Positions 5,977 through 48,503 are shown, counted from the stretch's first letter. The stretch: DNA of 64,000 bases from Candidatus Daviesbacteria bacterium (GCA_016176465.1 JACOXD010000011.1:12318-76317); one strand, 5' to 3'. The notes: generated by a model not told the origin, from the sequence alone. A program made the numbers and translations.

Positions 5977-6699
5977 TCAGTTAATGGTCGTATACTGAAC
6001 ACCTGTGGGCAAATAATCCTTATAAAATGGGTTGTCCAAGATATATTTTATGCTTGATTTACCCATTCCAAACTTATCCCCAATAGCTTGCAAGGTTAGC
6101 TTCTCTTTTATTCTGAAGTTAAAGATTGCTTTTACCTTTTCAAACTCATTCTTATCAATGACCAAATCACTCTTTTGTGCCATATTACGCTTCTTTAACT
6201 TAAAGCCAAGCGGTAACATATCAGGTGATCCAAGTCTTCTACCCTGCCTTGTAAGTTCCTGTAGTGCATCAATTGTACGTTCTGCTATCAGATCCCGCTC
6301 CATCTGTGCCATAGCTCCCATGACTGTAAGAAAAAACTTACCAGAAGCAGAACTTGTATCTATATTCTCGTTTAGACTTATAAATTGAATATCATTTTTT
6401 GCAAAAACATCTTCAATAAGATAGAGGAGGTCCCGAGTTTTACGGGTTAATCGGTCTAATTTGTAGCAAATAACACCATCTATTTTCTTTTCCTTGACTA
6501 AATTTATGATTTTTTGAAGTCCTGGTCTATTCATGGTCTTACCAGATTTACCCTCCTCAATAATCATTTCCACTAAATCCATGTCCTTTAAATCCGCATA
6601 AGCCATAATTTTATGCTCCTGATTATCTAAGCTAACACCATCACGGCTCTGCTCAAGAGTTGATACCCTGGTATATCCAATTACTCTAAGCTTTTTCAT
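5977..6699 (-). CDS. Serine recombinase (resolvase/invertase type, N-terminal catalytic domain)
   Basis: VIGYTRVSTLEQ ... DGVICYKLDRLTR ... catalytic-Ser resolvase motifs. Confidence 0.85.
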   Translation of the reverse strand: MKKLRVIGYTRVSTLEQSRDGVSLDNQEHKIMAYADLKDMDLVEMIIEEGKSGKTMNRPGLQKIINLVKEKKIDGVICYKLDRLTRKTRDLLYLIEDVFAKNDIQFISLNENIDTSSASGKFFLTVMGAMAQMERDLIAERTIDALQELTRQGRRLGSPDMLPLGFKLKKRNMAQKSDLVIDKNEFEKVKAIFNFRIKEKLTLQAIGDKFGMGKSSIKYILDNPFYKDYLPTGVQYTTIN

Positions 6700-7241
6700 T
6701 TTTCTTCCTCATCAACAATTTTTATCCTTCTGTATCCCTTAATTGGTTTGCCATATGCGTAATGCGTTGGTGAACCTAAGATAGATTGCGGACGTCCTTT
6801 GTATTCTGGTTGATCTAATTTCTTAGTGAAATGTTTAACATCCGCTGTGAGTTTTCTGATGTCCTCGTTACAGGTATATAGATTTATTGCTTGGTGTAAG
6901 AAAACCGCCATAGAACCGCCAGGTTGGGCAGTTAATACTGGAGATAGCTTTTCAATAGCCTCATTAAACTGTTGTACTAATTTCGATCTTTCTTCTGATT
7001 TATCCGGTAAAGGAAGTCCAGCATATACTAATAACTCGGTACCATTTATCCTGTACCATTTACCTCCAAATTTATTAGCCTGTAACCTTCCTGATTTGAT
7101 AGCTCGATGAATAGTGGCTACTGAAACATGAAGCAATTCAGCTGCTTCCTCTGCTGTATAGGTCGTGAAATGTAATATTGGATCGCTCATAATGTTTAAG
7201 TCTACATCAACGATGATGTATTTGTCAATATTAAGATTCAT
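6696..7241 (-). CDS. Excisionase-family HTH DNA-binding protein (Xis/MerR-like) with C-terminal extension
   Basis: TAEEAAELLHVSVATIHRAIKSGRLQANKFGGKWYRING; 4-bp overlap with recombinase start. Confidence 0.55.
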   Translation of the reverse strand: MNLNIDKYIIVDVDLNIMSDPILHFTTYTAEEAAELLHVSVATIHRAIKSGRLQANKFGGKWYRINGTELLVYAGLPLPDKSEERSKLVQQFNEAIEKLSPVLTAQPGGSMAVFLHQAINLYTCNEDIRKLTADVKHFTKKLDQPEYKGRPQSILGSPTHYAYGKPIKGYRRIKIVDEEEK

Positions 7242-8089: not shown

Positions 8090-8860
8090 AACACCTTCGA
8101 GGTGGTCTAGGCAGGCACCTCTTCTCTATTCTAAAACCAAGTGCTTGATCTTATCTAATTCTCTAGCATAGCTTACTTGATCCAAAACAAATTTTTTATA
8201 TTCATTTATAGATTTAAAAAAACCTAAAACCTCCTCAGAGCTTGTAATCTTCTCTGCTTTTGGTACCAAATACTCAAAGTAAGAAGACCATTGGTAGTTT
8301 TCCAAATCCTCCGTCTTAATTAAGTAGGAAGTTACTGGGTTTAGATGAATATATCTTGATAGATGAATAAACTGTTCATCAGAATCAACAAACACTGCCT
8401 TGAATAACCCCTGAAGAAGTGGACCCACTCTTTTATTTTTGGTGTTAAAGTATTTGGTATAAGAGTTAGAAAAGTTAGATATAAATTTAGATATACCATT
8501 TTCTTTCTTCTGCTTTAGTAGGAAGTGAAAATGGTTGGGCATTAAACAAAAAGCAATAATTTCTACTAATACATTCTCATCATCTAAGTTTTTCCATAAT
8601 TCATCTTTTTTGTCATTTGCGAGATCTAAAAACTTGGAAAATTTCAAAGGCAGACTTCCGTAGCGGTAAAACTTTAAAGTTTCTAAAGCTCTTGAATATT
8701 CCCTGCTTTTGGTAAAAATTGGACGCTTCTCTACACCTCGATTAAAAACATGATAGATGATCTGCTCATTTGCAAAAACAAACTTTCTATTTGTGGGCAT
8801 CTATTTAAAGTATGGACTAAAAAAGGACAGGTGTCAACCCAGACCACCTTTCAGGTGGTT
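8090..8860 (-). mobile_element. IS200/IS605-like element (HUH Y1 transposase flanked by CACCT-N3-AGGTG hairpins; TTGACA in left end)
   Basis: Hairpins at 8092-8104 (caccttcgaggtg) and 8844-8858 (ccacctttcaggtgg) flank tnpA-like ORF; same motif flanks second copy at 42.5 kb. Confidence 0.6.
8126..8800 (-). CDS. tnpA: IS200-like / REP-associated tyrosine (HUH, Y1) transposase
   Basis: HuH motif LMPNHFHFLL and catalytic Tyr in SRYIHLNPV; ~70% identical paralog at 42589-43233. Confidence 0.75.
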   Translation of the reverse strand: MPTNRKFVFANEQIIYHVFNRGVEKRPIFTKSREYSRALETLKFYRYGSLPLKFSKFLDLANDKKDELWKNLDDENVLVEIIAFCLMPNHFHFLLKQKKENGISKFISNFSNSYTKYFNTKNKRVGPLLQGLFKAVFVDSDEQFIHLSRYIHLNPVTSYLIKTEDLENYQWSSYFEYLVPKAEKITSSEEVLGFFKSINEYKKFVLDQVSYARELDKIKHLVLE

Positions 8861-11762: not shown

Positions 11763-12681
11763 TTTGAGAAAGATTTAAGTTTTCTTCTTTAGGAATTTCA
11801 AGAACTACTTCCTCCTCCTTAGTACTCAGTGATTCGTTAATTTTAACAGTTTCTTTAAGTAAAGGAGTTTTTAAATTTAGGTTGGAGGCCCAAGCTAAAA
11901 AAGCCTGAATATCTTTTGGCAAACAAGCTCCATCAAAAGCTCCTAAATCCTTGATTCCATAGTTTGGATTCCACATCCCTTCTGCACTCTTTGCAACTAA
12001 AGGAAAGATGTTTTCAGGATTTAAGCCAAGTTGCTTGCAGATAATTCTCATCTCATTAAAAAAAGTGATTTTTGTGGCATTAAAGATATTGTGGACATAT
12101 TTTTGAATTTCAGCTTCCACTATAGGTATTCTATAAATAGGACAATCGAAGTCTTTATAAATTTCCCTTAGAGTCTCGCCTGATTTTATGTCAAACTCTC
12201 CAATAACTATAACCCAAGGCTTCAGCGTGTCATCTAAAGATGTTTTCTGTCTTAAATATTCAGGGTTCATGCATAAACCTAAGTCCTTTCCAAATTTTTT
12301 GCCTGAATGTTCTTCAATTGTTTTTAAGACAAGACTTTCAGTTGTACCTGGGATAACAGTGCTTCTTACAACTACTAAATGATACTTGGATATTTTTGAT
12401 AACCATTTCCCTAAATCTTTACAGACTGACTTCATTATCCTTAAATCGCTTTTTCCATCTACTGTAGGCGTTGGTACACAAAAAAAAGTTGCATCAAAAT
12501 CGTACTTTTCTGAGGATAATTTATTTACTATTAAAGCTTTATATCCTTCTTTTTTTAAGGTGGAAATAATAGTTGGATTAATATCTGTAAAAACCACACT
12601 TAATCCTTTAGATTGAAGAGCTTTTCCTGTCGCCTGTCCTACTACACCTGAACCTATAATGCAAATCTTAGTATTTTTCAT
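11734..12681 (-). CDS. UDP-glucose/GDP-mannose 6-dehydrogenase family protein (short form lacking canonical C-terminal domain)
   Basis: Rossmann KICIIGSGVVGQATG, VPTP, catalytic Cys motif GACLPKD; only ~75 aa after Cys. Confidence 0.7.
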   Translation of the reverse strand: MKNTKICIIGSGVVGQATGKALQSKGLSVVFTDINPTIISTLKKEGYKALIVNKLSSEKYDFDATFFCVPTPTVDGKSDLRIMKSVCKDLGKWLSKISKYHLVVVRSTVIPGTTESLVLKTIEEHSGKKFGKDLGLCMNPEYLRQKTSLDDTLKPWVIVIGEFDIKSGETLREIYKDFDCPIYRIPIVEAEIQKYVHNIFNATKITFFNEMRIICKQLGLNPENIFPLVAKSAEGMWNPNYGIKDLGAFDGACLPKDIQAFLAWASNLNLKTPLLKETVKINESLSTKEEEVVLEIPKEENLNLSQNGLLSSFNS

Positions 12682-16123: not shown

Positions 16124-16750
16124 TTATTTTTCTGCAGCTATCTTTAACCCCAATCTAATCGCATCTATAATAGCTCTTCTCGCTGCTGTTATTTTTTCTC
16201 TAACTTCCTTTAAATCAGCGCGCAAAGTATTTTTAGCATCAAGCGCATCTTTATTTACAGCACTTTCTGAGGAAACAGTAATAGTATATTCCTCTGCTGC
16301 TTGGCTGGCAACAGCTACTCTAGCATCTGCTATTAAAGTTTCGGCGCTGTCAAAGGATTGTTTTACTTCAAAGTTAGATGTAAGGAGAGGGGCAATTCTT
16401 GGTTTTGCTTCAAACCTTTTAAGCAAGTTTTCCATTGTGGTTAGGTGGCGAGTATAAGCTTTAGTGAGTTTTTGGTTTATCATATTTAGGTTTCTGTTGA
16501 TATTTTCTACTCTTTTGGCCTTGACTTGATCTTTAAAAGTTTTCAATTTGGCTAATAATTTGGCTTCTCTAGAGGCTATATTTTCAATTTTGGTGTTTAG
16601 TTTCTCCTTAAGGTTTTCCTTTTGCTCTATTAATCTATCTATAGCTCTAATCTTATCTCCACTAGGAGTTGAATCTTTTGCATAAACTGGGTACAAAGGG
16701 GTTAAATAAAGAATGGTTGCAGCGGTTAACAGGGCAAGCTTAAATTTCAT
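16124..16750 (-). CDS. Secreted coiled-coil protein, hypothetical
   Basis: Signal peptide MKFKLALLTAATILYLTPLYPVYA, K/E-rich heptads. Confidence 0.35.
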   Translation of the reverse strand: MKFKLALLTAATILYLTPLYPVYAKDSTPSGDKIRAIDRLIEQKENLKEKLNTKIENIASREAKLLAKLKTFKDQVKAKRVENINRNLNMINQKLTKAYTRHLTTMENLLKRFEAKPRIAPLLTSNFEVKQSFDSAETLIADARVAVASQAAEEYTITVSSESAVNKDALDAKNTLRADLKEVREKITAARRAIIDAIRLGLKIAAEK

Positions 16751-16788
16751 TACTAAGTTACTACTTTAAAGAAAAAGATGTAGTTTTG

Positions 16789-17121
16789 TCAACTTTTGCT
16801 TGTAGATAGGATCTCTCTTTTAAAACAGTAAGCACCTATCCAACCACATTCGAAGGCAATTCTACCTACTTCCCTATCAGGGTTACTAAGTAAAAAAAAT
16901 CTGGCTCCTTCTATTCCAGCTTCTGCAGTTATTATTTCATCAGGAGAATATCTATTAGTGTAAAGTCGAGTAGTTAGATCTATCAGTAAGTCTACATGCC
17001 CTTTAATAACGGGATTCTCTAAAAAGGGTGCAGCAAATTCCAATACTTCCTCAGCAAACCAGCCTGCTCTTTCCTGAGCAGGTACTCCCTCCCATTCTTT
17101 ACTGGTATAACCATGAGGCAT
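16789..17121 (-). CDS. Hypothetical protein
   Basis: 110 aa ORF. Confidence 0.3.
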   Translation of the reverse strand: MPHGYTSKEWEGVPAQERAGWFAEEVLEFAAPFLENPVIKGHVDLLIDLTTRLYTNRYSPDEIITAEAGIEGARFFLLSNPDREVGRIAFECGWIGAYCFKREILSTSKS

Positions 17122-17165
17122 AGGCGAAAATATAACACATTTTTGGTAAAATAGGTAGGTGCACT

Positions 17166-17239
17166 GCCCCCATAGCTCAGTGGATTAGAGCAGGGCGGTT
17201 CTAACGCCAAGGTCGGGGGTTCGAATCCCTCTGGGGGTG
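17166..17239 (+). tRNA. tRNA-Arg (anticodon TCT, tentative)
   Basis: D-arm TAGCTCAGTGGATTAGAGC, T-arm GGGGGTTCGAATCCCTC, anticodon loop GTTCTAA; G1-U72 wobble and one stem mismatch. Confidence 0.65.
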
Positions 17240-17297
17240 CTACAAAAAAATTAGTTGGGAAAACTATTACTGTTTGGTTTAGATATGCCTTCACTTT

Positions 17298-17327
17298 AGC
17301 TTTCAACCCCCGGGGTTTCCACATAAA
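17298..17327. repeat. 30-bp GC-core repeat, left copy of inverted pair (partner 23384-23413)
   Basis: agctttcaacccccggggtttccacataaa is the reverse complement of the 23384-23413 copy except for a one-base shift in the C/G core. Confidence 0.6.
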
Positions 17328-17899
17328 TGGGGTTGTGCAGCACATTGAAGCAACCTAGCATCAAAACTATTAATTCCTGATTCTACAAAATTAATACTAC
17401 CTTCTTGTTTCGGTACTCTATTATCATAAATATCTTCTGGCAAACTAATTACTTTTTTAGCAACTAATTTACCCTTATCATTTAACCCAAATATATAAAT
17501 TGTTTGTGGATGGAATGGTCTATCTGAAGTGTCCTCTCTAGCTCTTACTAAATCTCTCTTTCTTGCTCTATCAGTAACCGGTCCTCTTACTTCTAAACTC
17601 AGAATTGGGCTAAGTCCTAACTTTTCATATGCATAAAAAGACCTAGTTGGTTCTCCCAGGAAAGTTAACTTAGGATAATGTTGAAACGCAAGTGATCTTC
17701 TCCCCAAAAATACAGCTTGTTTAGCAAAACCCAGCAGTTCTTCTGGATCATATTCACGTTTATGGTATAAACTGTGCCAAAGGGCTCCAAAAAAGTAAGT
17801 AGCTCTGTTTACTAAAAATGGACGACCTTGGTTAGGTATCTCAATAGCTTGTTCAGTCCTCATAAAATTATTATAGCTCAATAGACTATAGTTGTGCAA
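17303..17899 (-). CDS. Hypothetical protein downstream of dinB
   Basis: 198 aa ORF co-oriented with dinB. Confidence 0.35.
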   Translation of the reverse strand: MHNYSLLSYNNFMRTEQAIEIPNQGRPFLVNRATYFFGALWHSLYHKREYDPEELLGFAKQAVFLGRRSLAFQHYPKLTFLGEPTRSFYAYEKLGLSPILSLEVRGPVTDRARKRDLVRAREDTSDRPFHPQTIYIFGLNDKGKLVAKKVISLPEDIYDNRVPKQEGSINFVESGINSFDARLLQCAAQPHLCGNPGG

Positions 17900-17907
17900 C
17901 TATAGGG

Positions 17908-19278
17908 TTAGAGCTTAAATCTTCTGTCTGCTAAAAAAGGATTTGCTTTCCTATAAACTTTAACTGAGTTAAGTAAAACCCCTCTTTGCAAAGTAAACTC
18001 TCCAAACTTATCATTAATTTTATCTAAAGCTTTAGTTATAACTTCTTTTACTTTTACTTCTGGAAGAAGATTTAAGTTTTCAGGAGTTGTTGGTTTTAAA
18101 TTAGAAATAGAAATACCTATCATTCTTATAGCTTTCTCATCCCAAAGGCTCATGAATATCCCCCACCCTGTTTTAAATATTTCCAAACCGTCACTAGTAA
18201 AAGAAACTGTGCTTTGCGCTCCATCTCCTAAGAATCCAATCCCGGTTTGGAATTGAGGCGACAAACCGGGATTGTAGGTTTGTTTAAATGCATATCTAAA
18301 CCAAAGGGAAACAGTTTTACCTACTAGTTTTTTGGCTCGCATTCTTCTTGCAACTAATTCTGAAAGCTTAAGCAAGATTTGTTTAATTTCTTCATAAGAG
18401 TCTGCGTCATGATCTATTGTGTGTCTATGACCAATTGATTTTACTTCTTCTTTCTCATAAAAAGGGCTGACAGGAGAATCATCCAATCCCCTGCTCATGT
18501 TATATAAAGTTTGTCCATAACTTTTAAAAGAGGCTAATAAATACTCCAAGTTTACTCTTCTTAAATCAGAAAAATTAAAAATCCCCATATTATTTAACCT
18601 CCTTTTAATCCTAAACCCTATCCCACAAACCTCATTTAGCTCAATTTGGTCTAAAATTCTCATTGCTGCCTGCTCATCTGCTATTACCAGCAACCCATCG
18701 GGTTTGTATAAAGACCCAGCTAATTTAGCTAAAAATTTGTTATAAGAAATCCCAATAGAACATGTAATCCACTCCCCAATCTTAGCTCTTATTTGGGATT
18801 TAATATCTATAGCCATTTCAATAACGTCATTCCCGACCCGCTTCGCCGGAGCGAGAGCGAGGCGAGCCTGATCGGGAATCTGAATAGATCTCCCAATCGA
18901 GTTGGAAGATGACATTTTTAATTTGGGTGATGACTTCTTGGGCTGAGGCAGTTCTATAAATGCCTCATCGATAGAGAAAAGCTCTATATAGGGGGAATAG
19001 CTTTTTAGAATATTTAAAAATTTTTTAGTAGTAGATAAGTATTTATCAGAATCCCCTTTTACTAAAATTAATTGTGGACAAAGTTTTCTAGCTTCATATA
19101 AATTCATCCCAGTTTTTACCCCAAACTTTTTAGCCTCCACTGATGCAGCACCAACTACAGTCCTCTTCATTCTATCTCCACCAGTTACCCCAATAGGTTT
19201 ACCTCTAAGTCTTGGGTTAGCTTGCTGTTCAACCCTGGCAAAGTAGCTATTAAAATCTATATGTAATATTGTTCTCAT
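17908..19278 (-). CDS. dinB: DNA polymerase IV (Y-family, DinB) carrying two in-frame palindromic insertions
   Basis: ILHIDFNSYFARVEQ, SIDEAFIEL, YNKFLAKLAG; insertions at 18237-18274 and 18829-18879. Confidence 0.8.
   Translation of the reverse strand: MRTILHIDFNSYFARVEQQANPRLRGKPIGVTGGDRMKRTVVGAASVEAKKFGVKTGMNLYEARKLCPQLILVKGDSDKYLSTTKKFLNILKSYSPYIELFSIDEAFIELPQPKKSSPKLKMSSSNSIGRSIQIPDQARLALAPAKRVGNDVIEMAIDIKSQIRAKIGEWITCSIGISYNKFLAKLAGSLYKPDGLLVIADEQAAMRILDQIELNEVCGIGFRIKRRLNNMGIFNFSDLRRVNLEYLLASFKSYGQTLYNMSRGLDDSPVSPFYEKEEVKSIGHRHTIDHDADSYEEIKQILLKLSELVARRMRAKKLVGKTVSLWFRYAFKQTYNPGLSPQFQTGIGFLGDGAQSTVSFTSDGLEIFKTGWGIFMSLWDEKAIRMIGISISNLKPTTPENLNLLPEVKVKEVITKALDKINDKFGEFTLQRGVLLNSVKVYRKANPFLADRRFKL
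18237..18274. repeat. RPE-like palindromic element (perfect 13-bp stem CAATCCCGGTTTG/CAAACCGGGATTG) in frame within dinB
   Basis: Encodes YNPGLSPQFQTGIG; near-identical copies in uvrB and uvrC. Confidence 0.7.
18829..18879. repeat. GC-rich palindromic in-frame insertion in dinB (ATTCCCGA-35 nt-TCGGGAAT)
   Basis: ~70% GC segment in AT-rich gene; encodes extra loop IPDQARLALAPAKRVGNDV absent from canonical DinB. Confidence 0.5.
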
Positions 19279-19301
19279 CTGTGTTCGACCGTAGTGGAGA
19301 A

Positions 19302-19568
19302 CTACAACTTAAAGTTGTTTATTAAGATCTTTCTCTTTTTATCTTGACTCCAACCTTTAATCTGTTTTTCTCTTATCCTAGCTTGTTCATAATCATTATG
19401 TTGCTCAAAGTACACTAATCTCTTAACTCCATGCTTAGCAGTATATTTACCGCCTAACCCGCTTAAATGTTGTTCAAATCTTAGCTCTGGTTTCCATGTT
19501 AAGCCGGTATAATATGTTCCATCTCTACACTCAATGATATAGACATACCAGCTCCATTGATTTTTCAT
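19302..19568 (-). CDS. GIY-YIG nuclease family protein (UPF0213-like)
   Basis: WYVYIIECRDGTYYTGLT ... RFEQH ... GWSQDKK. Confidence 0.7.
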   Translation of the reverse strand: MKNQWSWYVYIIECRDGTYYTGLTWKPELRFEQHLSGLGGKYTAKHGVKRLVYFEQHNDYEQARIREKQIKGWSQDKKRKILINNFKL

Positions 19569-19606
19569 AGGTACTTCTCCATGCGCTTCGCTTAGTCGAA
19601 GATAAA

Positions 19607-19855
19607 CTACTCAGACTCCTCTACAGCCTCCAGAAACCACTTAAGAGACTTAAGTTCAAATTTTAATCTATAAAAATTTCCATCTTTACTTGAAACTGAG
19701 AAAAAATAAACCAAGTTACCCTCCTCTTTAGCTGTATGAACTAAATTTATTTTATCTATCTGAATTTTTCTATCTTTCCAGAAAAAAATATAAGGGTGGA
19801 CTTTAACTCCTTTAAAAAATACCCAAACATTGATAGGTTCAGATAGTTCAAGCAT
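19607..19855 (-). CDS. Hypothetical protein
   Basis: 82 aa ORF. Confidence 0.3.
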   Translation of the reverse strand: MLELSEPINVWVFFKGVKVHPYIFFWKDRKIQIDKINLVHTAKEEGNLVYFFSVSSKDGNFYRLKFELKSLKWFLEAVEESE

Positions 19856-19986
19856 AAAAGGTGATAAGTAACTTTTCGTATCTCGTATTACGTATCTCTT
19901 ATCACTATCTGTTATATACCCAAAGAAAATCCAAAGTCAATATAGAAAATTGTAAATAAAATTCATGGTAAAATTAAGCCTCTATT

Positions 19987-21684
19987 ATGAAGTTTTTGCT
20001 CTGTTTGCTATTTTCTCTGTTGTTTCTTTTTTTTGCTCAACCTACCCAAGCCATTGTTAACCCAAACTCTGTTCCTAATAATAAATTTGGAATTCATATT
20101 ATCTCTGCAAGTATTGATGAGGCTTCCCCTGCAGGAAGTTTAGTTAACTCATCTGGTGGTGATTGGGGCTATATCACAGTCTTAATTGAGAGTAAAGACA
20201 GAGATAAAAATAAATGGCAGGCCTTTTTTGATGATTTAAGAAAAAGGCATTTAATTCCAATTGTACGGCTAGCCACACAACCAGATCCTGCTGGGTTTTG
20301 GAAAAGACCATACCAAAGGGAGGAAGAAGCTTGGGCTAATTTTTTGGATGAGTTAAACTGGCCTACAAAAAACAGGTATGTAATTATTTATAACGAGCCA
20401 AACCATGCAACAGAGTGGGGAAATAGTGTGGATGCTAAGGACTATGCTCAAACTCTCAATAAAACTATTGATGAACTTAAGAAAAAATCAGAGAATTTTT
20501 TTATCTTAAACGCAGGATTTGACGCCTCTGCTCCTGAGAAATTGCCTAATTACTCTGATCAATTTGAGTTTATGAGACAAATGAATGATGAAGTACCAGG
20601 CATTTTTAATAAACTTGACGGCTTTGCCTCTCACTCTTACCCTAACCCCGGCTTTGTTTCCTCACCTGATGATTTTGGAAGAGGTAGCGTACGTACTTTT
20701 GCCTGGGAGATGGGTGTTTTAAGAGAACTTGCAGTTAATAAAGATTTACCTATTTTTATTACTGAAACTGGCTGGAAACACTCAGATGGCCAAAAGTTTG
20801 ATCCATCTTTGCCTTCTCCTGAAAAGATAGCCCAAAATTATAAGATAGCTTTTGAGGGTGCTTGGAACAGTAATAGAATTGTGGCAGTTACCCCCTTTTT
20901 ATTAAATTATCAAGAGACTCCATTTGACCATTTTTCTTTCCAAAAAAATGGTGAGAAAAACTATCATCCTCAGTTTGTAGAAATTAAAAAAATGCCTAAA
21001 TTAAAAGGCAGACCTATTCAAGAAGACCAAGCTAATTTAGTAAAAGGAAAAATATTTAGCTCTCTAGTTGCAGGAGAAAATTATGCTATCGCACTAACTT
21101 TTAAAAATATCGGGCAATCTATTTGGAATGAGTATGAAACTGTTACCCTGCAAGCTGTCTTGGGCGGTGGAGAGCTGGAATTTAAGGGCGTGCCTATACC
21201 TAAAGGAGTTAAGGTAGAACCGGGCCAAGATCATACTTTTTTAGTGAAAATTAAAGCTCCTGGTGATGGAAAATATAAAATTGCCTTAAATTTATTTAGG
21301 GGGAATGAACAGTTTAGTTCAAAATCTGTTGAGTTTGAAACAGAAGTTAAATCTCCTGTTATCTTACAAGTTAAAGCTAAATTAAGGTGGAAAGAAAATT
21401 CATCCGGAGATTATATCTTAGGGGTAACAGGGGTAATTCAAGACAGCTTTAAAAAAATAGCTCTAAATTCAGGTGGGGAATCGGAAAATATAGAGATGAG
21501 GCAGTTGTTGCCTGAGTATACTTTTGAGTTTAGCTTAAGAAAACCTTACTATAAATCTAAATCTTTAATTCAAAATGTTAAATCTGGGATAAATACACTA
21601 GATTTTGGAATTTTGGAGCCAGACTTCCCAGCAGCAATTTTAAACCCCAAAGAATTATGGAAGTTATTACCTTTTAGTAATTAA
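19987..21684 (+). CDS. Secreted glycoside hydrolase, clan GH-A (GH5-like) with C-terminal beta-sandwich region
   Basis: Signal peptide; NEPN acid/base and ITETGW nucleophile motifs. Confidence 0.5.
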   Translation: MKFLLCLLFSLLFLFFAQPTQAIVNPNSVPNNKFGIHIISASIDEASPAGSLVNSSGGDWGYITVLIESKDRDKNKWQAFFDDLRKRHLIPIVRLATQPDPAGFWKRPYQREEEAWANFLDELNWPTKNRYVIIYNEPNHATEWGNSVDAKDYAQTLNKTIDELKKKSENFFILNAGFDASAPEKLPNYSDQFEFMRQMNDEVPGIFNKLDGFASHSYPNPGFVSSPDDFGRGSVRTFAWEMGVLRELAVNKDLPIFITETGWKHSDGQKFDPSLPSPEKIAQNYKIAFEGAWNSNRIVAVTPFLLNYQETPFDHFSFQKNGEKNYHPQFVEIKKMPKLKGRPIQEDQANLVKGKIFSSLVAGENYAIALTFKNIGQSIWNEYETVTLQAVLGGGELEFKGVPIPKGVKVEPGQDHTFLVKIKAPGDGKYKIALNLFRGNEQFSSKSVEFETEVKSPVILQVKAKLRWKENSSGDYILGVTGVIQDSFKKIALNSGGESENIEMRQLLPEYTFEFSLRKPYYKSKSLIQNVKSGINTLDFGILEPDFPAAILNPKELWKLLPFSN

Positions 21685-22160
21685 GCGGCTAACGCTCCTG
21701 TAACGATAGCTATTTTATCAGCATATCCTTCTTTAGGAAATGCTAGAGTAAACGGGATGTGCATTACCCTAAGCTTATAGACATCCTCGACCTCTTCTCC
21801 TATTGCCTTATTTGCTTTATAAAGCCTGTCTCTAAGTCTGGGTGCCAGTACTAACTTACTTGAATCAGTAAATATAAATCTTGGATCGCGCTCTCGCCAA
21901 ATAACTACCCCATTATCAATTATAGGGATGTGAACGGGCCGTGGCGCGTGGAATGTAAGATTAAAACTCCAAGCCTGTAATTCAACAGGTCTAGAAGTCT
22001 CTCCTCTGACAGCAGGCAGTATATCTTCTAAAGCAAACTTTACCCACTGACTAGTGCCCAAAACAGCTAGGGCTTGGGCGTAAAATCCAATTACTGCTAA
22101 CGCAGCCTCTTCAATTTTAGATCTATTCCATTCAACTAACTCCACAGCTTCATTTTTCAT
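21681..22160 (-). CDS. Hypothetical protein
   Basis: 159 aa ORF. Confidence 0.3.
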   Translation of the reverse strand: MKNEAVELVEWNRSKIEEAALAVIGFYAQALAVLGTSQWVKFALEDILPAVRGETSRPVELQAWSFNLTFHAPRPVHIPIIDNGVVIWRERDPRFIFTDSSKLVLAPRLRDRLYKANKAIGEEVEDVYKLRVMHIPFTLAFPKEGYADKIAIVTGALAA

Positions 22161-22229
22161 AGCAAATGCCTGTTACCTATAGGATAACTGGAAGTAGGAT
22201 CAAAAATCAAGTACAATATAAGCCTAAAT

Positions 22230-22302
22230 GGTGGCTGTAGCTCAGTGGTAGAGCGCTGGTTTGTGGAACCGGATGTCGCGGGTTCGAATCCCGTCAGTCA
22301 CC
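22230..22302 (+). tRNA. tRNA-His (anticodon GTG) with genome-encoded G-1
   Basis: G-1 + GTGGCTG acceptor, anticodon loop TTGTGGA, T-arm GCGGGTTCGAATCCCGT, discriminator C73. Confidence 0.8.
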
Positions 22303-22337
22303 CAAAAGAAGTAAAAAGTTGAAGGTGTGAACGTAGT

Positions 22338-22823
22338 TCACCCTGAGGGTGGAAATACATTTGCATTTATCTTTAGCGCTTCAATATCACGTTGCTTAGC
22401 GTTAATTACCCGCTCACCAACAATTATATCTTGCTGGGTTTTAGAGGCAAATAGAAGTTTTAAGGTTTCATCAAACCGAATCCAGACAGGGATATAGTCT
22501 TTTAAAGGAGAAAAGTTTAGCGCTTTGCCAACCTCAGCGTAGAATACATAGTTAATTTTATCTAATCCTTCATGGAAATAGTCATAAATTGGCAAAATAC
22601 GCTTTATTTTAAGATCTATTTTTAGAAATTCAAGCACTACTCTTTGAAATGTAATCATTGCATCTTCTCCTTCCCTACCTTCTCCTCCCAACATAGACCA
22701 TGCTGGACTAGAGTCATCTGTTGGTTGGGACTGAAGCAAGAGAATTTGCCCGGTCTTTTGGTTGTAAAGGAATCCGCTTGCATAAAAGGGTTTATGCATG
22801 GGAGTAGTATAACACAATTGCAT
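22338..22823 (-). CDS. Possible divergent NUDIX hydrolase
   Basis: GGEGREGEDAMITFQRVVLEFL weakly matches Nudix box. Confidence 0.3.
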   Translation of the reverse strand: MQLCYTTPMHKPFYASGFLYNQKTGQILLLQSQPTDDSSPAWSMLGGEGREGEDAMITFQRVVLEFLKIDLKIKRILPIYDYFHEGLDKINYVFYAEVGKALNFSPLKDYIPVWIRFDETLKLLFASKTQQDIIVGERVINAKQRDIEALKINANVFPPSG

Positions 22824-22904
22824 AAATTTATTCTCTTGCTTCTCCTCAGGAGATAATTAAACTATAGGTTGATATATTTCCCCTAAAATCCTATAATTCT
22901 TTAT

Positions 22905-23372
22905 ATGCAGTCTCGATTAGAAATTAGGCATGCTCGCTTCGGGAAGCTGATGACAATTAGAGCATTTAGAGAAGGTGAACCGGTGGGCGGATTGGAGTAT
23001 TTCCCCGCCGAAACTCCAGGTGGTCCTATCACGCTTGAGGGGGTCAACTGTGATCCAGCTGAACCCTACTTAGGTAGAAAGCTACTTAGAAGGTTTGTTG
23101 AAACAGTAGGTCCTAATAAGTTAATAGTTGGATATATTGCCAATGATTCAACAAAAAGATACCTTCTGCGTAGCGGATTCATGGAAGGAGTAGATGAACA
23201 AAGTCCCAAAGATATTACAGAATTAATTGATTTGGAAAAAATTCCTCTGACAAGAGTATTAAGAACTGGTAATTTAAACTTAACCAGATTGCGCATTGTT
23301 TATAGCGCGGAGGTATTAGAAGCAGATCCAGAATTCCCTTATGCGATCCATTTTGAAGCTGTTACTAAATAA
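22905..23372 (+). CDS. Hypothetical protein (possible GNAT-fold acetyltransferase)
   Basis: PYLGRKLLRRFVE resembles GNAT motif A. Confidence 0.3.
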   Translation: MQSRLEIRHARFGKLMTIRAFREGEPVGGLEYFPAETPGGPITLEGVNCDPAEPYLGRKLLRRFVETVGPNKLIVGYIANDSTKRYLLRSGFMEGVDEQSPKDITELIDLEKIPLTRVLRTGNLNLTRLRIVYSAEVLEADPEFPYAIHFEAVTK

Positions 23373-23383
23373 ATTTTACAGAG

Positions 23384-23413
23384 TTTATGTGGAAACCCCC
23401 GGGGTTGAAAGCT
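23384..23413. repeat. 30-bp GC-core repeat, right copy of inverted pair (partner 17298-17327)
   Basis: tttatgtggaaacccccggggttgaaagct. Confidence 0.6.
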
Positions 23414-23481
23414 AATATGTTAAGAGATTATACAGCCCTATAGTTTGATTAATATCCTCAAATACCTTATAATTATAAATC

Positions 23482-24225
23482 ATGGTTGAAGAAAATGGAA
23501 GCGGTAAAGGGGAAGATTTATCAAAATACCAATTTATGTATAGAGTTGCTGAGCCAATAACAACTGTACTTAAGCAAAGCGCGCGCATGCGTAAAACAAA
23601 CAGGGATATAGTATATACTTCCAGAAAGTATCTGGATTATGGAGACCCCCCAAAACCCTTTTGTCTTGCTGTTAGTCCTGAAGGGACAAAGCTTTTAAAA
23701 GAGTCTGACAGGTTATTAAAAATACTAGCTCTTACCCTAGAAGATGAAGAAATAGCTACACACTTACAAAATTTAAATTTACCAAATTTTAATGCCCATA
23801 TTGCCGGGCTTCCTTTAGGGGTTTCTTCCAGAATAGCTTTTGCCTGGATACAGGTTATCGAAAAGTCTCGTGCAGATTTTCAGGGAGAATTTCACCCACT
23901 TTCTGGCTTAGAAAGATTTGATGCTACTAGGGCTTTGGAAGATGAGGGTTTTGAATGCTTCCATCCTTACGTGGCTACTAACTGGAAATATGTGGTTGAG
24001 TTTCCAACAGGGGTTAGAGTTAAACAAGAGCAGTCTAACCTGGTTAGAAAAGCTTTTGAGGGATATTTAGAGGTAGCAGATAGAAGACTAAAGCGATTGA
24101 AGAGAAGAGGATTTTGGCAGCCTCACTGGAAACTAAGAACAGATCCTGAGTATTACTACATTGTTGATTTGAGACACAAAAGAGCTTTAAAAAGATTTAA
24201 AGCGTTTGATCCAGTAACAAGTTAG
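23482..24225 (+). CDS. Hypothetical protein
   Basis: 247 aa ORF. Confidence 0.35.
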   Translation: MVEENGSGKGEDLSKYQFMYRVAEPITTVLKQSARMRKTNRDIVYTSRKYLDYGDPPKPFCLAVSPEGTKLLKESDRLLKILALTLEDEEIATHLQNLNLPNFNAHIAGLPLGVSSRIAFAWIQVIEKSRADFQGEFHPLSGLERFDATRALEDEGFECFHPYVATNWKYVVEFPTGVRVKQEQSNLVRKAFEGYLEVADRRLKRLKRRGFWQPHWKLRTDPEYYYIVDLRHKRALKRFKAFDPVTS

Positions 24226-24242
24226 GATAAAATAGATCTCGT

Positions 24243-24797
24243 ATGAGTAAAGAAAATGGCTTAGAAATTATTAATAGTATCCGTTTTGATACTGAGGTTG
24301 AGAGAACACTAGCTTTGGAAGATTATGAAGGTGGACACTTTACCGAGGCAGATTTAAACCCTCCCAGACTAATCCAAAGGATGAGAATGCGGATGGTCGC
24401 CTTTCATGAAATTGGCCATAAAAAACTAGTTTCAGCTTTTGGTTATGCACTGAAAGCAATATCTGTTATCCCTAGAGGCATAACTTTGGGTTATACAAGT
24501 TATGCAACTACTAATGAGGATCCAGAAACAGCTGCAGAACATGGAATAGCTTTAGCTTTAGGCTCAGTTGCTGCTCAAGAAAGAGTAGGATTAAACCCAT
24601 GGGAAGGAACTGGTTCAGATTACCCTAAAGCTAAAAGATTATCAGAAGGGTTATCTGAACTAACAGGAGGTTTGGTTCACGCCAGTGAGTATTTCTCTAG
24701 AGGTTTATCTTTAGCTAAAGCTTGTTTAGCTTCCATTCCTATTTCCCAACTAAAAGTGGAAGCAAGAAGTTTAGAACAAGCAGGCACAGTTGCTTAA
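24243..24797 (+). CDS. Stand-alone FtsH-like (peptidase M41) metalloprotease domain protein
   Basis: VAFHEIGHKKL (HExxH) followed by ISVIPRGITLGYT, matching the FtsH protease-domain motifs; no AAA domain. Confidence 0.45.
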   Translation: MSKENGLEIINSIRFDTEVERTLALEDYEGGHFTEADLNPPRLIQRMRMRMVAFHEIGHKKLVSAFGYALKAISVIPRGITLGYTSYATTNEDPETAAEHGIALALGSVAAQERVGLNPWEGTGSDYPKAKRLSEGLSELTGGLVHASEYFSRGLSLAKACLASIPISQLKVEARSLEQAGTVA

Positions 24798-39305: not shown

Positions 39306-40619
39306 TTATATACCTACTCTGCTAAACATTTTTTTACTTCTTAACTTAAGGTGATAGTTAAGTGCAAAACGGTGGGATTCATCTCTGATTTTTTGCAATA
39401 AACGAAGAGACATTCTTCTTTTAGGGATCTTTACAATTTCTCCCTCAATTGGATATAACCTCTCCATTTTTTTTGCCAATCCAAATATAGGAATACTTAC
39501 TTCTCGTTTCTCTAAGATAGCGGCCACCCCTCTAACCTGACCTCTCCCTCCATCGATTATAATTAAATCTGGAAAGGGCCACTCAGGATGATTTAGTCTC
39601 CTCCTCATCATCTCAGATAGCATTGCTACATCATTAGGTTTTCCAGTAATTTTTATTTTAAACTTTCGATACTGCGATTTATCTATTTCTCCATTTGCTA
39701 AAACTACAAGTGATCCTGAAGCTTCCCCCCCTTGAATATTAGAAATATCATAACCTTCAATCCTCTTAGGCAAATTAGGCAATTTCAAATCCGTCATTAG
39801 CTGCTTTAATCCCAACTTATTTTGGTCTTCCAAAAAATTAGGATTATCTAAATACATTGAAATCTCAGTTGGTTGGGTAATATATTCAATCCCAGAAATT
39901 GTTTTCTTTAAAGTTTCTGCCTTTTCAAATTGCAAGTTTTTTGCAAGATCTTTCATTTCAACTTGCAACTCACTTAACAAAACTTCTTTTTCTCCACCTA
40001 TAAATTTAATAAAGCGGTTAATAATTTTTCGGTACTCTTTTGCATCTATCAAACCTATACAGGCTCCGGGACAAAGTCTTAGATGATAGTAAAAACATGG
40101 TCTAGCTTTCCAATCCCGGATTGGATTTGAATTGACAATCCGGGATTGGATGGTTATTTTCGATGGATTAGAACACCAAGGGAAGACTCTCCTTATTTTT
40201 TTTAAAGTTTGATTAACAGTACGGGATGAAGGAAAAGGACCAAAATATTTCAATGCATCGCTTAGTTCCTGCTTTCTGGAAGTTATTATCCTTGGGAACT
40301 TTTCCTTAGTGACTTTAATATAAAGATAATCTTTATTATCAGTTAAGCGGACGTTAAAGGTGGGCAAATTTTTTTTAATTAAATTGGCTTCCAAAATAAG
40401 TGCTTCTAATTCCGATTCCACCACAAAAAAAACAATGTCGGCAATACTTTCTACTAATTGGGCTGTTTTTAAAGATGATCTATCTCTAAAATAGGAGGCA
40501 ACCCTGGACTTTAAATCTACTGCTTTGCCCACATATAAAATGTCACCTTTTAAATCTTTAAATATGTAAACGCCACTTTTGTGAGGAATATCCTCTTTCG
40601 ATAAATTCTTGGGAATCAT
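39306..40619 (-). CDS. uvrC: Excinuclease ABC subunit C (short form lacking C-terminal HhH2) with in-frame palindromic insertion
   Basis: GIY-YIG SGVYIFKDLKGDILYVGKA, UVR domain, RDESHRFAL; 437 aa. Confidence 0.8.
   Translation of the reverse strand: MIPKNLSKEDIPHKSGVYIFKDLKGDILYVGKAVDLKSRVASYFRDRSSLKTAQLVESIADIVFFVVESELEALILEANLIKKNLPTFNVRLTDNKDYLYIKVTKEKFPRIITSRKQELSDALKYFGPFPSSRTVNQTLKKIRRVFPWCSNPSKITIQSRIVNSNPIRDWKARPCFYYHLRLCPGACIGLIDAKEYRKIINRFIKFIGGEKEVLLSELQVEMKDLAKNLQFEKAETLKKTISGIEYITQPTEISMYLDNPNFLEDQNKLGLKQLMTDLKLPNLPKRIEGYDISNIQGGEASGSLVVLANGEIDKSQYRKFKIKITGKPNDVAMLSEMMRRRLNHPEWPFPDLIIIDGGRGQVRGVAAILEKREVSIPIFGLAKKMERLYPIEGEIVKIPKRRMSLRLLQKIRDESHRFALNYHLKLRSKKMFSRVGI
40110..40149. 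repeat. RPE-like palindromic element (15-bp stem CCAATCCCGGATTGG/CCAATCCGGGATTGG) in frame within uvrC
   Basis: Encodes IQSRIVNSNPIRDW; read in a different frame from the dinB/uvrB copies. Confidence 0.7.
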
Positions 40620-40641
40620 TTAAGGAATTATTATAACCCAA

Positions 40642-42486
40642 TTATCTTCTTTTTTTTCTTTTATTTCTGGTGGGCTGATTATTAGTTTTTAAATGGAAAA
40701 TTAGAGTTAATAAATATATTAAAATCATGCTACCGATAATTCCAGATACTAAAAGAGGCAGTAAACTTAGTGAGAAAAAGGGATTTACTTTAATAGGTCT
40801 ATTAAAGAGCTCCTCATTAATTTTTATTTGTAAAACATCATCAGTTTTTTTCCAAAAAGGATTTGCTGAAATACTAAATCGATATTCAAAAAGACCAAAG
40901 GGAGCAATAGCATCTACGTTTACAACTTTCAAAGGATTAATTTCTAAATCTTTAGCTAAAAAAGAAACGGTTGCGGGTTTTGAATAAGCAAAACCGTTAT
41001 TGGCTATCTTAACTTTCCCTTTAGATGGAAAACCTGCCAAAATTTCTGCGGGAATATCTATAGAGTACTCCAGTTTTGCATCCGCTATAAGAGTTTTATC
41101 AGTAAGAGTTTGATCCCTGGGTGCAATTTTTACTTGGGTTGGCCAGATTAAATCTTTCATAATTCCCTGGTGGGAAACTTTTAAATGACTTAAATCCAAT
41201 TTATTAAAATAATCCTGCCCAGAAATTGATTGCATCGTTGGGTCAATCATTATCCAACCTCTAGCCGGATCATAAAACTCCACTAAAAAGTTAGGTGTCT
41301 GAGTATTTAAGGTAGCCCCAACTACCAATCTGGTAGGAATTTTAGCTCCTCTTGAGAGGGCAATGAATAAATCTGCATATTCTAGACTCAAAGCATCCTC
41401 CGGATTATTTAATACAGTTAGAGCTCCAAGACGATAGTCATTATTGCTTAAATACCTTTCTTGGTTAAATTGCAAATGATTACCTACAAAATTTTGAATT
41501 AACTCTGCCTTTTGGTGATTTGTAAGCTTGTCCTTATCTTTTAAAATTTCTAAAAGTTTTTGTTTAACTGCTGGATCATCTTTCTGCCAAAAAGTGCTTG
41601 ATCCCAAATATTTATTAAGATTTGCCTCTTCTTCAATTTGAGGTTTTACTCTAGGATTAAGAGAAATTGAAGCAGTACCATTTATTATTACATCTCTTGT
41701 TCCCCTGATTGGAAGTTTAAATAAAGCTAGAAAATTGCCATCAGTGTCTAAAACTACATTTTCCGGTTGCGGACTTATTTTTTCTATATTAATTTCCTGT
41801 AGGGTAGTATTTGAAGGAAGCGCAACAGAGGCTATTGATGGTAGCAGTGAATTATTTTGCAATTTATATACAATTTCAAAAGTAGTGGTTTGTTTCTCCC
41901 CAAAAATCATTTTTACACCCTTTCCTTGGATTTGATCTTTGGAAAAGTTAAATACTAGATTTCCTCCAATCTCAGAAATTGTTTCTGGCTCCGGTAAGAT
42001 TAAGGTGGGATCTCCCCAAGAAGTAGGAGTTATTAAACTTAAGTTAATATTTTCCACCTCTTCTGCCAAGGCAAGTTTAGGAATAAAGATTTGGACATTT
42101 TTCCCAAACTTTTGGGAAAAATCATTGGATTCGTAAGATACATTAAATATATTTTCTTTATCAACTCCGGTAATTTGTTGGTTTAAATTTATCTCTAAGT
42201 TAGTAAGATTATTTTCTCTTTTAGTGTTTACAGTTAGCGGTACCTGATTATCAGATGCTTTAATGTTTACTAAATTGGTTGATGGGACTAATATATTAAA
42301 TTTAGTTGCATAAAAAGTGGGTGTTAAATTTTTTAAAGTAACCTTTTGTTCAACTAGTGCTTTTCCATCATTTTCGATTTTATAGGTAATGTCATATGAA
42401 GTTTTGAACTCATTAGCAGCCAAAACAGTCGATGTAAAAAAGAAGAAGCCGATGATGTAAAAAAGGAAAATAATCAATTTGTTCAT
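40642..42486 (-). CDS. Secreted surface protein with C-terminal TM anchor and basic tail
   Basis: Signal peptide; C-terminus LLPLLVSGIIGSMILIYLLTLIF...RNKRKKRR. Confidence 0.4.
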   Translation of the reverse strand: MNKLIIFLFYIIGFFFFTSTVLAANEFKTSYDITYKIENDGKALVEQKVTLKNLTPTFYATKFNILVPSTNLVNIKASDNQVPLTVNTKRENNLTNLEINLNQQITGVDKENIFNVSYESNDFSQKFGKNVQIFIPKLALAEEVENINLSLITPTSWGDPTLILPEPETISEIGGNLVFNFSKDQIQGKGVKMIFGEKQTTTFEIVYKLQNNSLLPSIASVALPSNTTLQEINIEKISPQPENVVLDTDGNFLALFKLPIRGTRDVIINGTASISLNPRVKPQIEEEANLNKYLGSSTFWQKDDPAVKQKLLEILKDKDKLTNHQKAELIQNFVGNHLQFNQERYLSNNDYRLGALTVLNNPEDALSLEYADLFIALSRGAKIPTRLVVGATLNTQTPNFLVEFYDPARGWIMIDPTMQSISGQDYFNKLDLSHLKVSHQGIMKDLIWPTQVKIAPRDQTLTDKTLIADAKLEYSIDIPAEILAGFPSKGKVKIANNGFAYSKPATVSFLAKDLEINPLKVVNVDAIAPFGLFEYRFSISANPFWKKTDDVLQIKINEELFNRPIKVNPFFSLSLLPLLVSGIIGSMILIYLLTLIFHLKTNNQPTRNKRKKRR

Positions 42487-42534
42487 AATGCAATTTTAAC
42501 ATTTAAACAAGCATTTCTTAAGGTTTAGAGCAAT

Positions 42535-43265
42535 TAGCTTGACACTAGCTTGACACCTGAAAGGTGTACGCATAAACTTTACTAGTATATGCCTGGTAGA
42601 CTTGTACCCCTAGTTAATGGAGAGTTTTATCATATTTATAATCGTGGTAGTGATAAGCGCAATATTTTTTTGCAAAATAGAGATTACATCAGATTTCAAA
42701 AAACTTTTTATTATTACCAATTTTTAGGTCCGAAGGTAAGATTTTCTAAATTTGCTAAATCTACCTTAAACCTCTTTAATCCAACACTAAATGAAAAATT
42801 AGTAGAAATTCTCTGCTTTTGTTTAATGCCTAATCATTTCCACCTACTTTTGGTTCAACAAAAAGAAAACGGCATTTCTTCCTTTATTAGTCAACTTGCT
42901 AATAGCTACACCAAGTACTTTAATACGAAATATTCTAGGGTAGGTGCATTATTTCAAGGAGTTTTTAAGTCTGTGCGGATTTCATCAGATGAGCAGCTAA
43001 TTCATATATCACGCTACATACATATTAACCCAATAGTATCTGGTTTAACAAAGAACCTCAAAAACTATAAGTGGTCATCATATTCTGAATACTTACGAAA
43101 TAGAGAAACTTTTTGCCAGATCAGCACTATTTTAAATCTTTTCCCTTCTTCCAAAAAATACTCTGAGTTTATTGAAAATCAAATTAGCTATGGAACCACT
43201 CTCGAAATGATTAAACATCAAAAAATTGATTAATTAAATTCGTGCGGACACCTGAAAGGTGCAAA
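42535..43265 (+). mobile_element. IS200/IS605-like element, second copy
   Basis: LE tagcttgaca-tagcttgacacctgaaaggtgtac (42535-42568) with TTGACA/TAAACT promoter; RE hairpin cacctgaaaggtg 43249-43261. Confidence 0.6.
42589..43233 (+). CDS. tnpA: IS200-like / REP-associated tyrosine (HUH, Y1) transposase
   Basis: LMPNHFHLLL and SRYIHINPI; paralog of 8126-8800. Confidence 0.75.
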   Translation: MPGRLVPLVNGEFYHIYNRGSDKRNIFLQNRDYIRFQKTFYYYQFLGPKVRFSKFAKSTLNLFNPTLNEKLVEILCFCLMPNHFHLLLVQQKENGISSFISQLANSYTKYFNTKYSRVGALFQGVFKSVRISSDEQLIHISRYIHINPIVSGLTKNLKNYKWSSYSEYLRNRETFCQISTILNLFPSSKKYSEFIENQISYGTTLEMIKHQKID

Positions 43266-43266
43266 G

Positions 43267-46170: not shown

Positions 46171-46254
46171 GGATTCGGGTTCCTTTCGCCCTAAAAAGCA
46201 ATCTATTTTAACATAAAAAATTAACTTTTTAAAGACTAAGTTAGTAGCTAAAGA

Positions 46255-47874: not shown

Positions 47875-48437
47875 TTAGACTGTTAGCCTTGGGAGGCTTA
47901 AGCCTGGCACTCGGAGCGGCAACTGCTTACTATGATGCTCACTTTAATCCTTTGCAAACTTTTACAATTGATTCGGACGCTTCACGAACTTCAAAGTTAA
48001 GCCGTATAAAAGTTGAACGAAGCAGACTAACTGTCACTTTAGACAAGCCAGGGGATTTTAGCAGTGCTAGAGGGATAATTGATCTGGGTAGTGGTCCAGA
48101 ATACATACTTCCAAAAAAAACTCCTTTTCCACTAGATCCTTATGAGGAGGATTTTAACTCTAGATTTCCACCAAGTTGTAGCTCATATTCTCAAATGGGA
48201 GATATGCGTTTGGAACTTTGTATGAAGTACGGTATTCCAAATGATGAAATTGAAATCAACCTCGGGAAATCCCTTAGCGAAGGGCCAAAAAGTCGAAGTT
48301 TATTTTTTCATCGTAGCCTTATTGGATTAAAAAAAATTTTAGTTCGTTGGACAAACTGGAGGCTAGGACAGGTTTTACTTATTAAAGACTCAGTTGATAT
48401 TCCAGTTTCAGTAGAAACCAAATCCCAAGCTTATTAA
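47838..48437 (+). CDS. Secreted hypothetical protein (GC-richer)
   Basis: Signal peptide LRLLALGGLSLALGAATA. Confidence 0.3.
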   Translation: MYRESLRYTPISLRLLALGGLSLALGAATAYYDAHFNPLQTFTIDSDASRTSKLSRIKVERSRLTVTLDKPGDFSSARGIIDLGSGPEYILPKKTPFPLDPYEEDFNSRFPPSCSSYSQMGDMRLELCMKYGIPNDEIEINLGKSLSEGPKSRSLFFHRSLIGLKKILVRWTNWRLGQVLLIKDSVDIPVSVETKSQAY

Positions 48438-48503
48438 TCAAGCTTAACGTAATTCCCTTTTTATTTGCATTATTTTGTAAACAAGTTTAAAATCACGGGC
48501 ACT

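Follow-up and report, generated by a model that had tools for sequence, protein, structure and literature searches.

A near-perfect 32-nt inverted repeat around a dinB segment of Candidatus Daviesbacteria: probably two solo copies of a REP-like element

The inverted repeat and its setting

The DNA analyzed here is a stretch of 64,000 nucleotides (64 kb; hereafter the window) from a metagenome-assembled genome (MAG) of Candidatus Daviesbacteria, a Microgenomates lineage of the candidate phyla radiation (CPR) (GCA_016176465.1, JACOXD010000011.1:12318-76317). Our subject is a pair of short inverted repeats that bracket a 6.1-kb segment next to a tRNA-Arg gene. The bracketed interval holds dinB, recognized by its IMS domains, a GIY-YIG gene, a glycoside hydrolase (GH) gene, a Nudix gene, tRNA-His and the open reading frames (ORFs) orf198, orf155 and orf82. 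A reading of the sequence alone, which we call the original prediction, had listed a 198-aa ORF, dinB, GIY-YIG, GH, tRNA-His and a Nudix-like gene, and all of these are present, with weak matches for two of them: the 565-aa protein resembles GH5 at E = 1e-4, under the Pfam cut-off, and the NUDIX match is also weak.

The repeats had been described as 30-mers, at 17298-17327 and 23384-23413. These are indeed reverse complements of each other, with a single mismatch at the central base, and CCCCCGGGG reads identically on the plus strand in the left and right copies. The match extends to arms of 32 nt that agree at 31 of 32 positions (97% complementary) and are separated by 6056 nt (Table 1). No 30-mer match appeared in any of 100 dinucleotide-preserving shuffles, even with up to three mismatches allowed, and the window contains no third copy of the 32-mer, even at up to 11 mismatches in 32. 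When the left and right sites were compared by BLASTP, blastn and tblastx, similarity was confined to the 32 nt and ended sharply at their borders. Paralogy of orf198 and orf155, the ORFs at the two copies, was rejected because nothing outside the 32 nt was found in these comparisons.

Table 1. Coordinates of the repeat copies, related elements and associated genes in the window
Feature	Position	Strand	Remarks
Left copy, 32-nt REP-like element, type B (CCCCSGGGG stem)	17296-17327	+	TAGCTT head leftward (outward), CATAAA tail inward
Right copy, same type B element	23384-23415	-	Head rightward (outward); in the 109-nt spacer between orf155 and orf247
tRNA-Arg(TCT)	17166-17240	+	Antiparallel to dinB
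dinB-derived fragment (KKLVGKTITVWFRYAF..)	17245-17295	+	4 nt after tRNA-Arg; piece of the DinB little finger
orf198 (198 aa), ORFan	17303-17899	-	Last codons and stop within the left copy and the antisense of the dinB fragment
orf155 (155 aa), ORFan	22905-23372	+	Ends 11 nt before the right copy
Type A element (CACCT-GAA-AGGTG stem)	42546-42576	+	TAGCTT head and CATAAA tail as in type B; 12 nt ahead of the RAYT-like gene
Diverged type A mate	43239-43269	-	Far side of the RAYT-like gene, head outward
Solo type A element	51189-51219	+	About 55 nt upstream of the uvrB start codon
RAYT-like Y1 (HUH) transposase gene	42589-43233	+	Passes Pfam Y1_Tnp; under the NCBIfam REP_Tyr_transpos cut-off
Second RAYT-like Y1_Tnp paralogue	8126-8800	-	Flanked by a different CACCT hairpin family
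D1 hairpin doublet, dinB little finger (YNPGLSPQFQTGIG)	18237-18274	-	In frame
D1 sister copy, uvrC	40109-40150		
D1 sister copy, uvrB	49877-49914		

Both copies sit at gene 3' ends, as the original prediction had noticed. The left one starts 56-58 nt past the end of tRNA-Arg, in agreement with the 58 bp claimed, and includes the TGA stop of orf198 (17303-17305, opposite strand); the right one begins 11 nt past the stop of orf155. A convergent setting, orf198 against tRNA-Arg, is found at the left site only, the right copy lying between two plus-strand ORFs. The right copy also has the pentamer TATGT near its start (23386-23390), which is repeated directly after it (23416-23420).

The two ORFs have no relatives that we could find. 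Neither matches Pfam or NCBIfam, neither has phage matches, and each matches only itself among 5.8 billion proteins; for orf198, a full HMMER scan against 1.84 billion representatives again yields a self match only. Their AlphaFold models are too poor to justify fold searches (predicted local distance difference test, pLDDT, 46 for orf198 and 34 for orf155). The codon usage of both ORFs resembles that of the neighboring genes.

For comparison we used the dinB loci of seven relatives (L002, L003, L011, L012, L014, L015 and L016). The DinB of the window is 100% identical to a protein encoded on an 82.6-kb contig of a Candidatus Daviesbacteria MAG, and the closest DinB proteins from other genomes are 72-74% identical to it.

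A family of REP-like elements beside Y1 transposase genes

The plan of the 32-mer recurs in the window next to a gene for a Y1 (HUH) transposase that resembles the transposases associated with repetitive extragenic palindromic (REP) sequences, the RAYTs (REP-associated tyrosine transposases). The element is about 31 nt long. It opens with a TAGCTT head, which is followed after 2 nt by a GC-rich stem of 6 bp with a C/G at its centre (position 15), and it closes with a tail ending in CATAAA. When the 32-mer is aligned over 31 nt, without gaps, to the elements at 42546, 51189 and 43269 (reverse complement), both ends and the palindrome centre are common to all, so that the architecture of head, palindrome centred on position 15 and tail is shared and the types differ in the stem only: CACCT/AGGTG in type A, and ACCCC/GGGGT in the 32-mer, whose core is AACCCC-S-GGGGTT (type B). 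Exact TAGCTT-N19-CATAAA has three matches in the window, namely the two 32-mers and the element at 42546, against 0.03 expected, and allowing one mismatch adds the element at 51189.

The stem itself is conserved as a stem. Across six family members in the common register, 100% of the stem cells are paired and three of the five pairs have changed on both sides, whereas sliding the stem partner by 1-3 columns as a control gives 13-53% pairing. A covariance model built from six members, five of which are in the window, matched two sequences that it had not seen. One, matched from end to end (22 bits, E = 0.006), is the insert in the dinB little finger of L011; the other is an intergenic element of L015 (E = 0.0015). 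In the window, the model found no further strong members past the five used in building it. L015 has an element of this head, centre and tail (TAGCCTTCCACACCGGGTGTGGAATCGTAAA) at 6986, and it overlaps the Y1_Tnp gene of that genome at the gene's 3' end. The type A elements 42546(+) and 43269(-) bracket the Y1_Tnp gene of the window in inverted orientation with their heads outward, and the two 32-mers have the same heads-outward geometry.

Together, these observations suggest that each of the two 32-mers is probably a solo copy of a small palindromic element of REP-like kind, from a family that lies beside a RAYT-like Y1 (HUH) gene. Their inverted orientation is most likely incidental; for two copies, the chance of it is even. 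The element would be copied as a single-stranded hairpin. The RAYT-like transposase may do this, in the way that has been proposed for REPs and REPINs; the other route would be hairpin-associated template switching or gene conversion. The near-identity of the copies could follow from the second route, because template switching or gene conversion would also maintain their sameness. As a pair, the copies probably have no function. Singly, each may act as a 3'-end RNA hairpin, and at most the 32 nt of inverted homology would serve a rare RecA-dependent inversion, of which we see no evidence.

This reading draws on what is known of REPs, which are palindromes of 20-40 bp, usually tagged with GTAG or CGTC and often paired, that lie mostly downstream of ORFs and sometimes, or often, provide their stop codons; RAYTs have been proposed to mobilize them (PMC3733652). 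The Daviesbacteria elements are likewise palindromic units of about 31 nt with conserved unpaired ends. Members of the family (type A) flank a Y1_Tnp gene in inverted orientation, copies stand just after ORFs, with one of them giving the stop codon, and related doublets make long hairpins. A Y1 gene that adjoins hairpins, without long terminal inverted repeats, is also the arrangement of the IS200/IS605 elements, whose subterminal hairpins are bound by the Y1 transposase TnpA. However, the 32-mers lie 6 kb apart around conserved chromosomal genes, and there is no evidence that the segment between them has moved. In IS608, moreover, the left and right ends are on the same strand, unlike the inverted 32-mers.

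Several points weigh against the assignment to a REP-like family. The 32-mer has neither the GTAG nor the CGTC tag; it carries TTAG at its head (TTAGCTT) and has GTGG toward the tail, at a distance of 2 nt from the stem. GTGG is among the listed variants of the REP tag (PMC3733652). Its stem is short (5-6 bp), and the folding of the two copies is no better than that of shuffled sequences (z-scores of -0.7 and -1.2). The likeness to type A rests on two 6-nt ends and the register, and was spotted post hoc. Type B itself flanks no transposase gene. REPs number tens to hundreds of copies per genome, whereas the window holds two type B and three type A copies in 64 kb. Type B is limited to these two copies, and in some 124 kb of sequence from relatives it occurs nowhere outside dinB, which weakens the case for a dispersed family.

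The transposase genes and the host differ from the known systems as well. The two Y1 proteins of the window score 34 and 42 bits against Pfam Y1_Tnp, where the cut-off is 23, but 47 and 59 bits against the curated NCBIfam model of RAYTs, REP_Tyr_transpos, where it is 80. The host is a CPR bacterium. The list of phyla in the REP survey is without CPR (PMC3733652), and a literature text search found no paper linking RAYTs with CPR. We speak of a REP-like element rather than a REP because the canonical tag is absent, the Y1 proteins fall under the RAYT cut-off, and copy number is known for the window rather than genome-wide. Scans with GGAAACCCCSGGGGTTGAAAG of genome and metagenome collections in which the source MAG is not included returned one match each (L001 and L004), attributable to chance. 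Both matches fall in the same coding stretch of an unrelated genome of about 50% GC, which, from its translation, we take to be a UDP-GlcNAc 2-epimerase-like gene.

Some further features of the Y1_Tnp genes may be recorded here. Hairpins of the form CACCT-N3-AGGTG flank both paralogues; such hairpins lie at 8092, 8845, 31540, 42554, 43249 and 51197. The paralogue at 8126-8800 is 87% identical to a copy in L002, compared with only 72% for dinB, and the L002 gene occupies a different position within an otherwise collinear gene order.

The DinB little-finger site and hairpins in repair genes

The left copy is embedded in the remains of a dinB gene. The dinB-derived fragment that precedes it forms an inverted repeat with the resident dinB, and blastn and tblastx match it to dinB of L002 and of L003. 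Over its 47 native bases, identity is 83% to each of three dinB genes, those of the window, L003 and L002. Weak dinB homology returns past the element (about 17328-17345, GVVQHI versus GDGMQTTI). Because dinB homology is thus present on both sides, the 32-mer occupies a defined site in a dinB pseudogene fragment. We first took TTAGCTTTC as native dinB and then rejected this in favor of an element head, which fits better because the register is common with type A and GCYTTC is duplicated in the fragment.

The site is the insertion site in the DinB little finger, and we show that all eight dinB genes examined carry strong hairpins there, with stems of 10-15 bp (the window, L002, L003, L011, L012, L014, L015 and L016). 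Four unrelated stem types occupy it: CAATCCCGGTTTG, CACCCCCGGGGTG, CACCTGGAAGGTG and ACCTTCCCAC. Among 105 Daviesbacteria homologues of DinB, the segment at this site ranges from 8 to 48 residues and 14 have no insert; many of the inserts are peptide palindromes, such as HPRGV..HPGGV, HLRGE..LHLGGV and NPGLS.QFQTGIG. The type B stem itself, CCCC[CG]GGGG, occurs in 188 kb of Daviesbacteria DNA five times in dinB inserts (once in L011, twice each in L012 and L014), and elsewhere only in the dinB fragment of the window and in the right copy. A second variable insertion site in DinB follows the motif FSIDExFLE.

The stretch that separates dinB from tRNA-Arg seems particularly prone to rearrangement. 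The tRNA gene has the same direction as dinB in L002, L003 (a partial copy at a contig end), L011, L015 and L016, and the opposite direction in the window, L012 and L014. In the relatives, an unrelated ORF of 73-74 aa sits between dinB and tRNA-Arg. L012 has two degenerate copies of the tRNA-Arg 3' end after the tRNA (12150-12300; GGGGGTTCG...CCCTCTGGGGGTGCCA), which look like old att scars. Four independent Logan contigs of the same organism as the window, all with orf198 (L005-L008), end 64-270 nt upstream of orf198, inside the 3' part of dinB and close to the hairpin that the gene carries there; these ends may reflect strain variation or an assembly break.

That hairpin, a doublet that we call D1, is in frame in the little finger of the window's DinB and has sister copies in uvrC and uvrB. 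These three are the only D1 copies in the 64 kb, all of them within genes of the SOS response or nucleotide excision repair (NER); uvrA and lexA, also in the window, have none. D1 has stems of 13-15 bp and a loop of 12 nt, each arm is itself palindromic with a central C/G, and the folding z-scores of its RNA are -2.6 to -5.5. It is translated in frame as YNPGLS.QFQTGIG in DinB and UvrB, and in another frame in UvrC; in UvrB it inserts 17 residues that solved structures of the protein lack. In uvrC, the hairpin's first unit (40104) has the head TAGCTTTC and a palindrome centred on position 15, in the same register as the elements, and ATGT follows the D1 copies of uvrC and uvrB. The genes concerned lie in a DNA-damage neighborhood at 39306-53766 (uvrC, 39306-40619; uvrA, 43267-46170; uvrB, 49116-51134; lexA, 53149-53766), with the RAYT-like gene positioned between uvrC and uvrA.

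Hairpins at such places have a precedent. Intragenic REPs are reported to concentrate in the genes for UvrABC, RecBCD, Pol I and error-prone polymerases (Di Nocera et al., 2013; PMC3733652). Both these and the Rickettsia palindromic elements resemble D1, whose hairpin doublets stand in frame within uvrB, uvrC and a gene for an error-prone polymerase. In Daviesbacteria, however, the polymerase is DinB rather than DnaE2, a single little-finger site carries different stem types in different lineages, and the left copy lies in a dinB pseudogene fragment rather than in a working gene. The in-frame doublets and the multi-stem DinB site are more interesting than the repeat pair, which as a pair is of little importance, yet they too have precedent. 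Their modest value is that hairpin elements of the REP/RAYT type, with copies in frame in dinB, uvrB and uvrC among them, occur in a lineage of the CPR (Patescibacteria). They extend the reported and unexplained bias of intragenic REPs to repair and error-prone polymerase genes, and they offer a clean comparative system, with at least four stem types at one DinB site across relatives.

The dinB context also supplies the main rival to our reading, which is that the right copy is a one-off templated patch: a piece of 25-32 nt copied on one occasion from the dinB fragment, or from the allele that gave rise to it, through template switching at microhomology or gene conversion over a short tract. 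The 32-mer would then be no mobile unit, and its likeness to the RAYT-flanking hairpins would reflect only the REP ancestry of the dinB insert. Four observations speak for such a patch: the confinement of CCCC[CG]GGGG to dinB in the 188 kb apart from the right copy; the presence of just two copies; the repeated TATGT at the right copy, as microhomology or a 5-nt duplication would give; and the 97% identity of the copies, set against only 83% between the adjoining dinB fragment and any dinB. On the other side, the shared 32 nt match a complete element from head to tail within a few bases, in the type A register. This weakens the patch, because a random template-switch tract would not be expected to coincide with a whole element. 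The TATGT may also be a preference of tail or target rather than a duplication, because ATGT likewise follows the D1 copies of uvrC and uvrB. We therefore regard a single templated patch as unlikely, while treating it as the most serious competitor of the REP-like element.

An account at the level of RNA fares less well. Here the copies would be 3'-end elements, either terminators or mRNA-stabilizing hairpins, kept by selection at the ends of orf198 and orf155. The copies do stand at the 3' ends of ORFs and are oriented alike with respect to them, and action of this kind has been reported for REPs (PMC3733652). However, no T-run follows either copy, and a terminator scan of 16500-24500 flagged five terminator-like sites, neither copy among them. 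An Rfam search returned tRNAs only and no match for either copy, the z-scores given above show folding no better than in shuffled sequence, and the type A relatives sit in divergent promoter regions. We consider selection for 3'-end RNA elements improbable. The original prediction had offered, as its second option, a dispersed family of terminators or REPs; of this the REP part is supported, in that head, centre and tail are those of the RAYT-adjacent hairpins, while the terminator part is not.

A bolder idea would join the REP-like elements, the doublets and the pair. The DinB little finger, with similar sites in UvrB and UvrC, might serve in Daviesbacteria as a landing pad that exchanges RAYT-associated hairpin units of different stem types and so might tune the proteins of translesion synthesis and excision repair, or the mRNAs for them. 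The RAYT-like enzyme might, in addition, work in trans on the heads-outward pair and so excise or flip the 6.1-kb error-prone-polymerase segment. We mention this idea as a speculation with little chance of being right.

The 6.1 kb between the copies

The original prediction had proposed that the repeats are the termini of an old composite element or the ends of an invertible segment carrying a polymerase cassette. Neither reading is supported. What lies between the copies is 6.1 kb of ancestral chromosome in conserved synteny, and not a mobile cassette. In L011, gene order and orientation are those of the window (NAGPA-like, Nudix, tRNA-His, GH, orf82, dinB, orf208-like), and the outer markers, the NAGPA-like and orf208-like genes, fall outside the two repeats. 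L012 is collinear with the window from Nudix through the orf208-like gene, and L003 and L002 agree with the window order over the parts they cover. Neither L011 nor L012 has the 32-nt repeat. Because the interior is collinear in relatives with markers outside both repeats, it must be old chromosome that still has the ancestral orientation. A 474-aa "pyruvate kinase" neighbor in L011 had seemed to point to an inversion, but this was a false lead, since the 474-aa ORF of the window is a PMT_2 protein and not homologous to it.

We judged the orientation of the junctions from assembled contigs of the same organism from independent sequencing runs. The left junction is covered by four contigs from four independent runs and the right junction by three contigs from at least two runs; all have the orientation of the window and identical 32-mers, although a rare minority in the other orientation would escape a comparison of assemblies. 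A domain search found no transposase and no integrase in the interior. Outside the repeats there is no target-site duplication, the outer flanks CTTCACTT and TATGTTAA being unrelated. The 3' end of tRNA-Arg has no second copy in the window at up to three mismatches, and a genomic island bounded by a tRNA 3'-end repeat was rejected on the absence of that repeat and of an integrase in the segment.

It is thus very unlikely that the copies are recombination sites of an invertible 6.1-kb segment, whether a site-specific switch or a place of frequent homologous flipping. A segment bracketed by a near-perfect inverted repeat some tens of bases long is indeed what Hin/Gin-type systems and invertons have, and the window does contain a serine recombinase gene. 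However, that gene (5977-6699), the only recombinase gene of the window, lies 10.6 kb off, inside a different element marked by PrimPol and HTH_17 proteins, and it resembles the N-terminal half of a large serine integrase; there is no invertase adjacent to the segment. The site has a dyad of 13 bp only, and no dyad-symmetric site with an identical core; its sole mismatch is the central base, where strand exchange would require identity. Every assembly of both junctions shows a single orientation, and the orientation of the block relative to both flanks is the same in L011 and L012. Finally, the interior consists of housekeeping genes and a tRNA, not of a promoter or alternative gene ends.

That an old composite transposon or genomic island brought dinB to the side of tRNA-Arg, with the copies as its terminal inverted repeats, is hardly credible: the pair does bracket genes adjoining a tRNA, with the same geometry as around the RAYT-like gene, but the Nudix/tRNA-His/GH/orf82/dinB block is an ancient one shared by L003, L011, L012 and L015, no transposase or integrase lies inside, the tRNA 3' end is not duplicated in the window, and the outside flanks are unrelated. 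Because the repeat pair marks no mobile dinB cassette and no switch, annotation should not label this region as a transposon or island.

The first 7832 nt of the window, in which the serine recombinase gene lies, do resemble an integrated element. They encode a PrimPol/PriCT_1 protein (1573-2370) and an HTH_17 protein (6696-7241), and the recombinase between them, of 240 aa, resembles the N-terminal half of large integrases such as CcrB and XisF. GC content is raised to 0.39-0.41 in the first 3 kb of the window.

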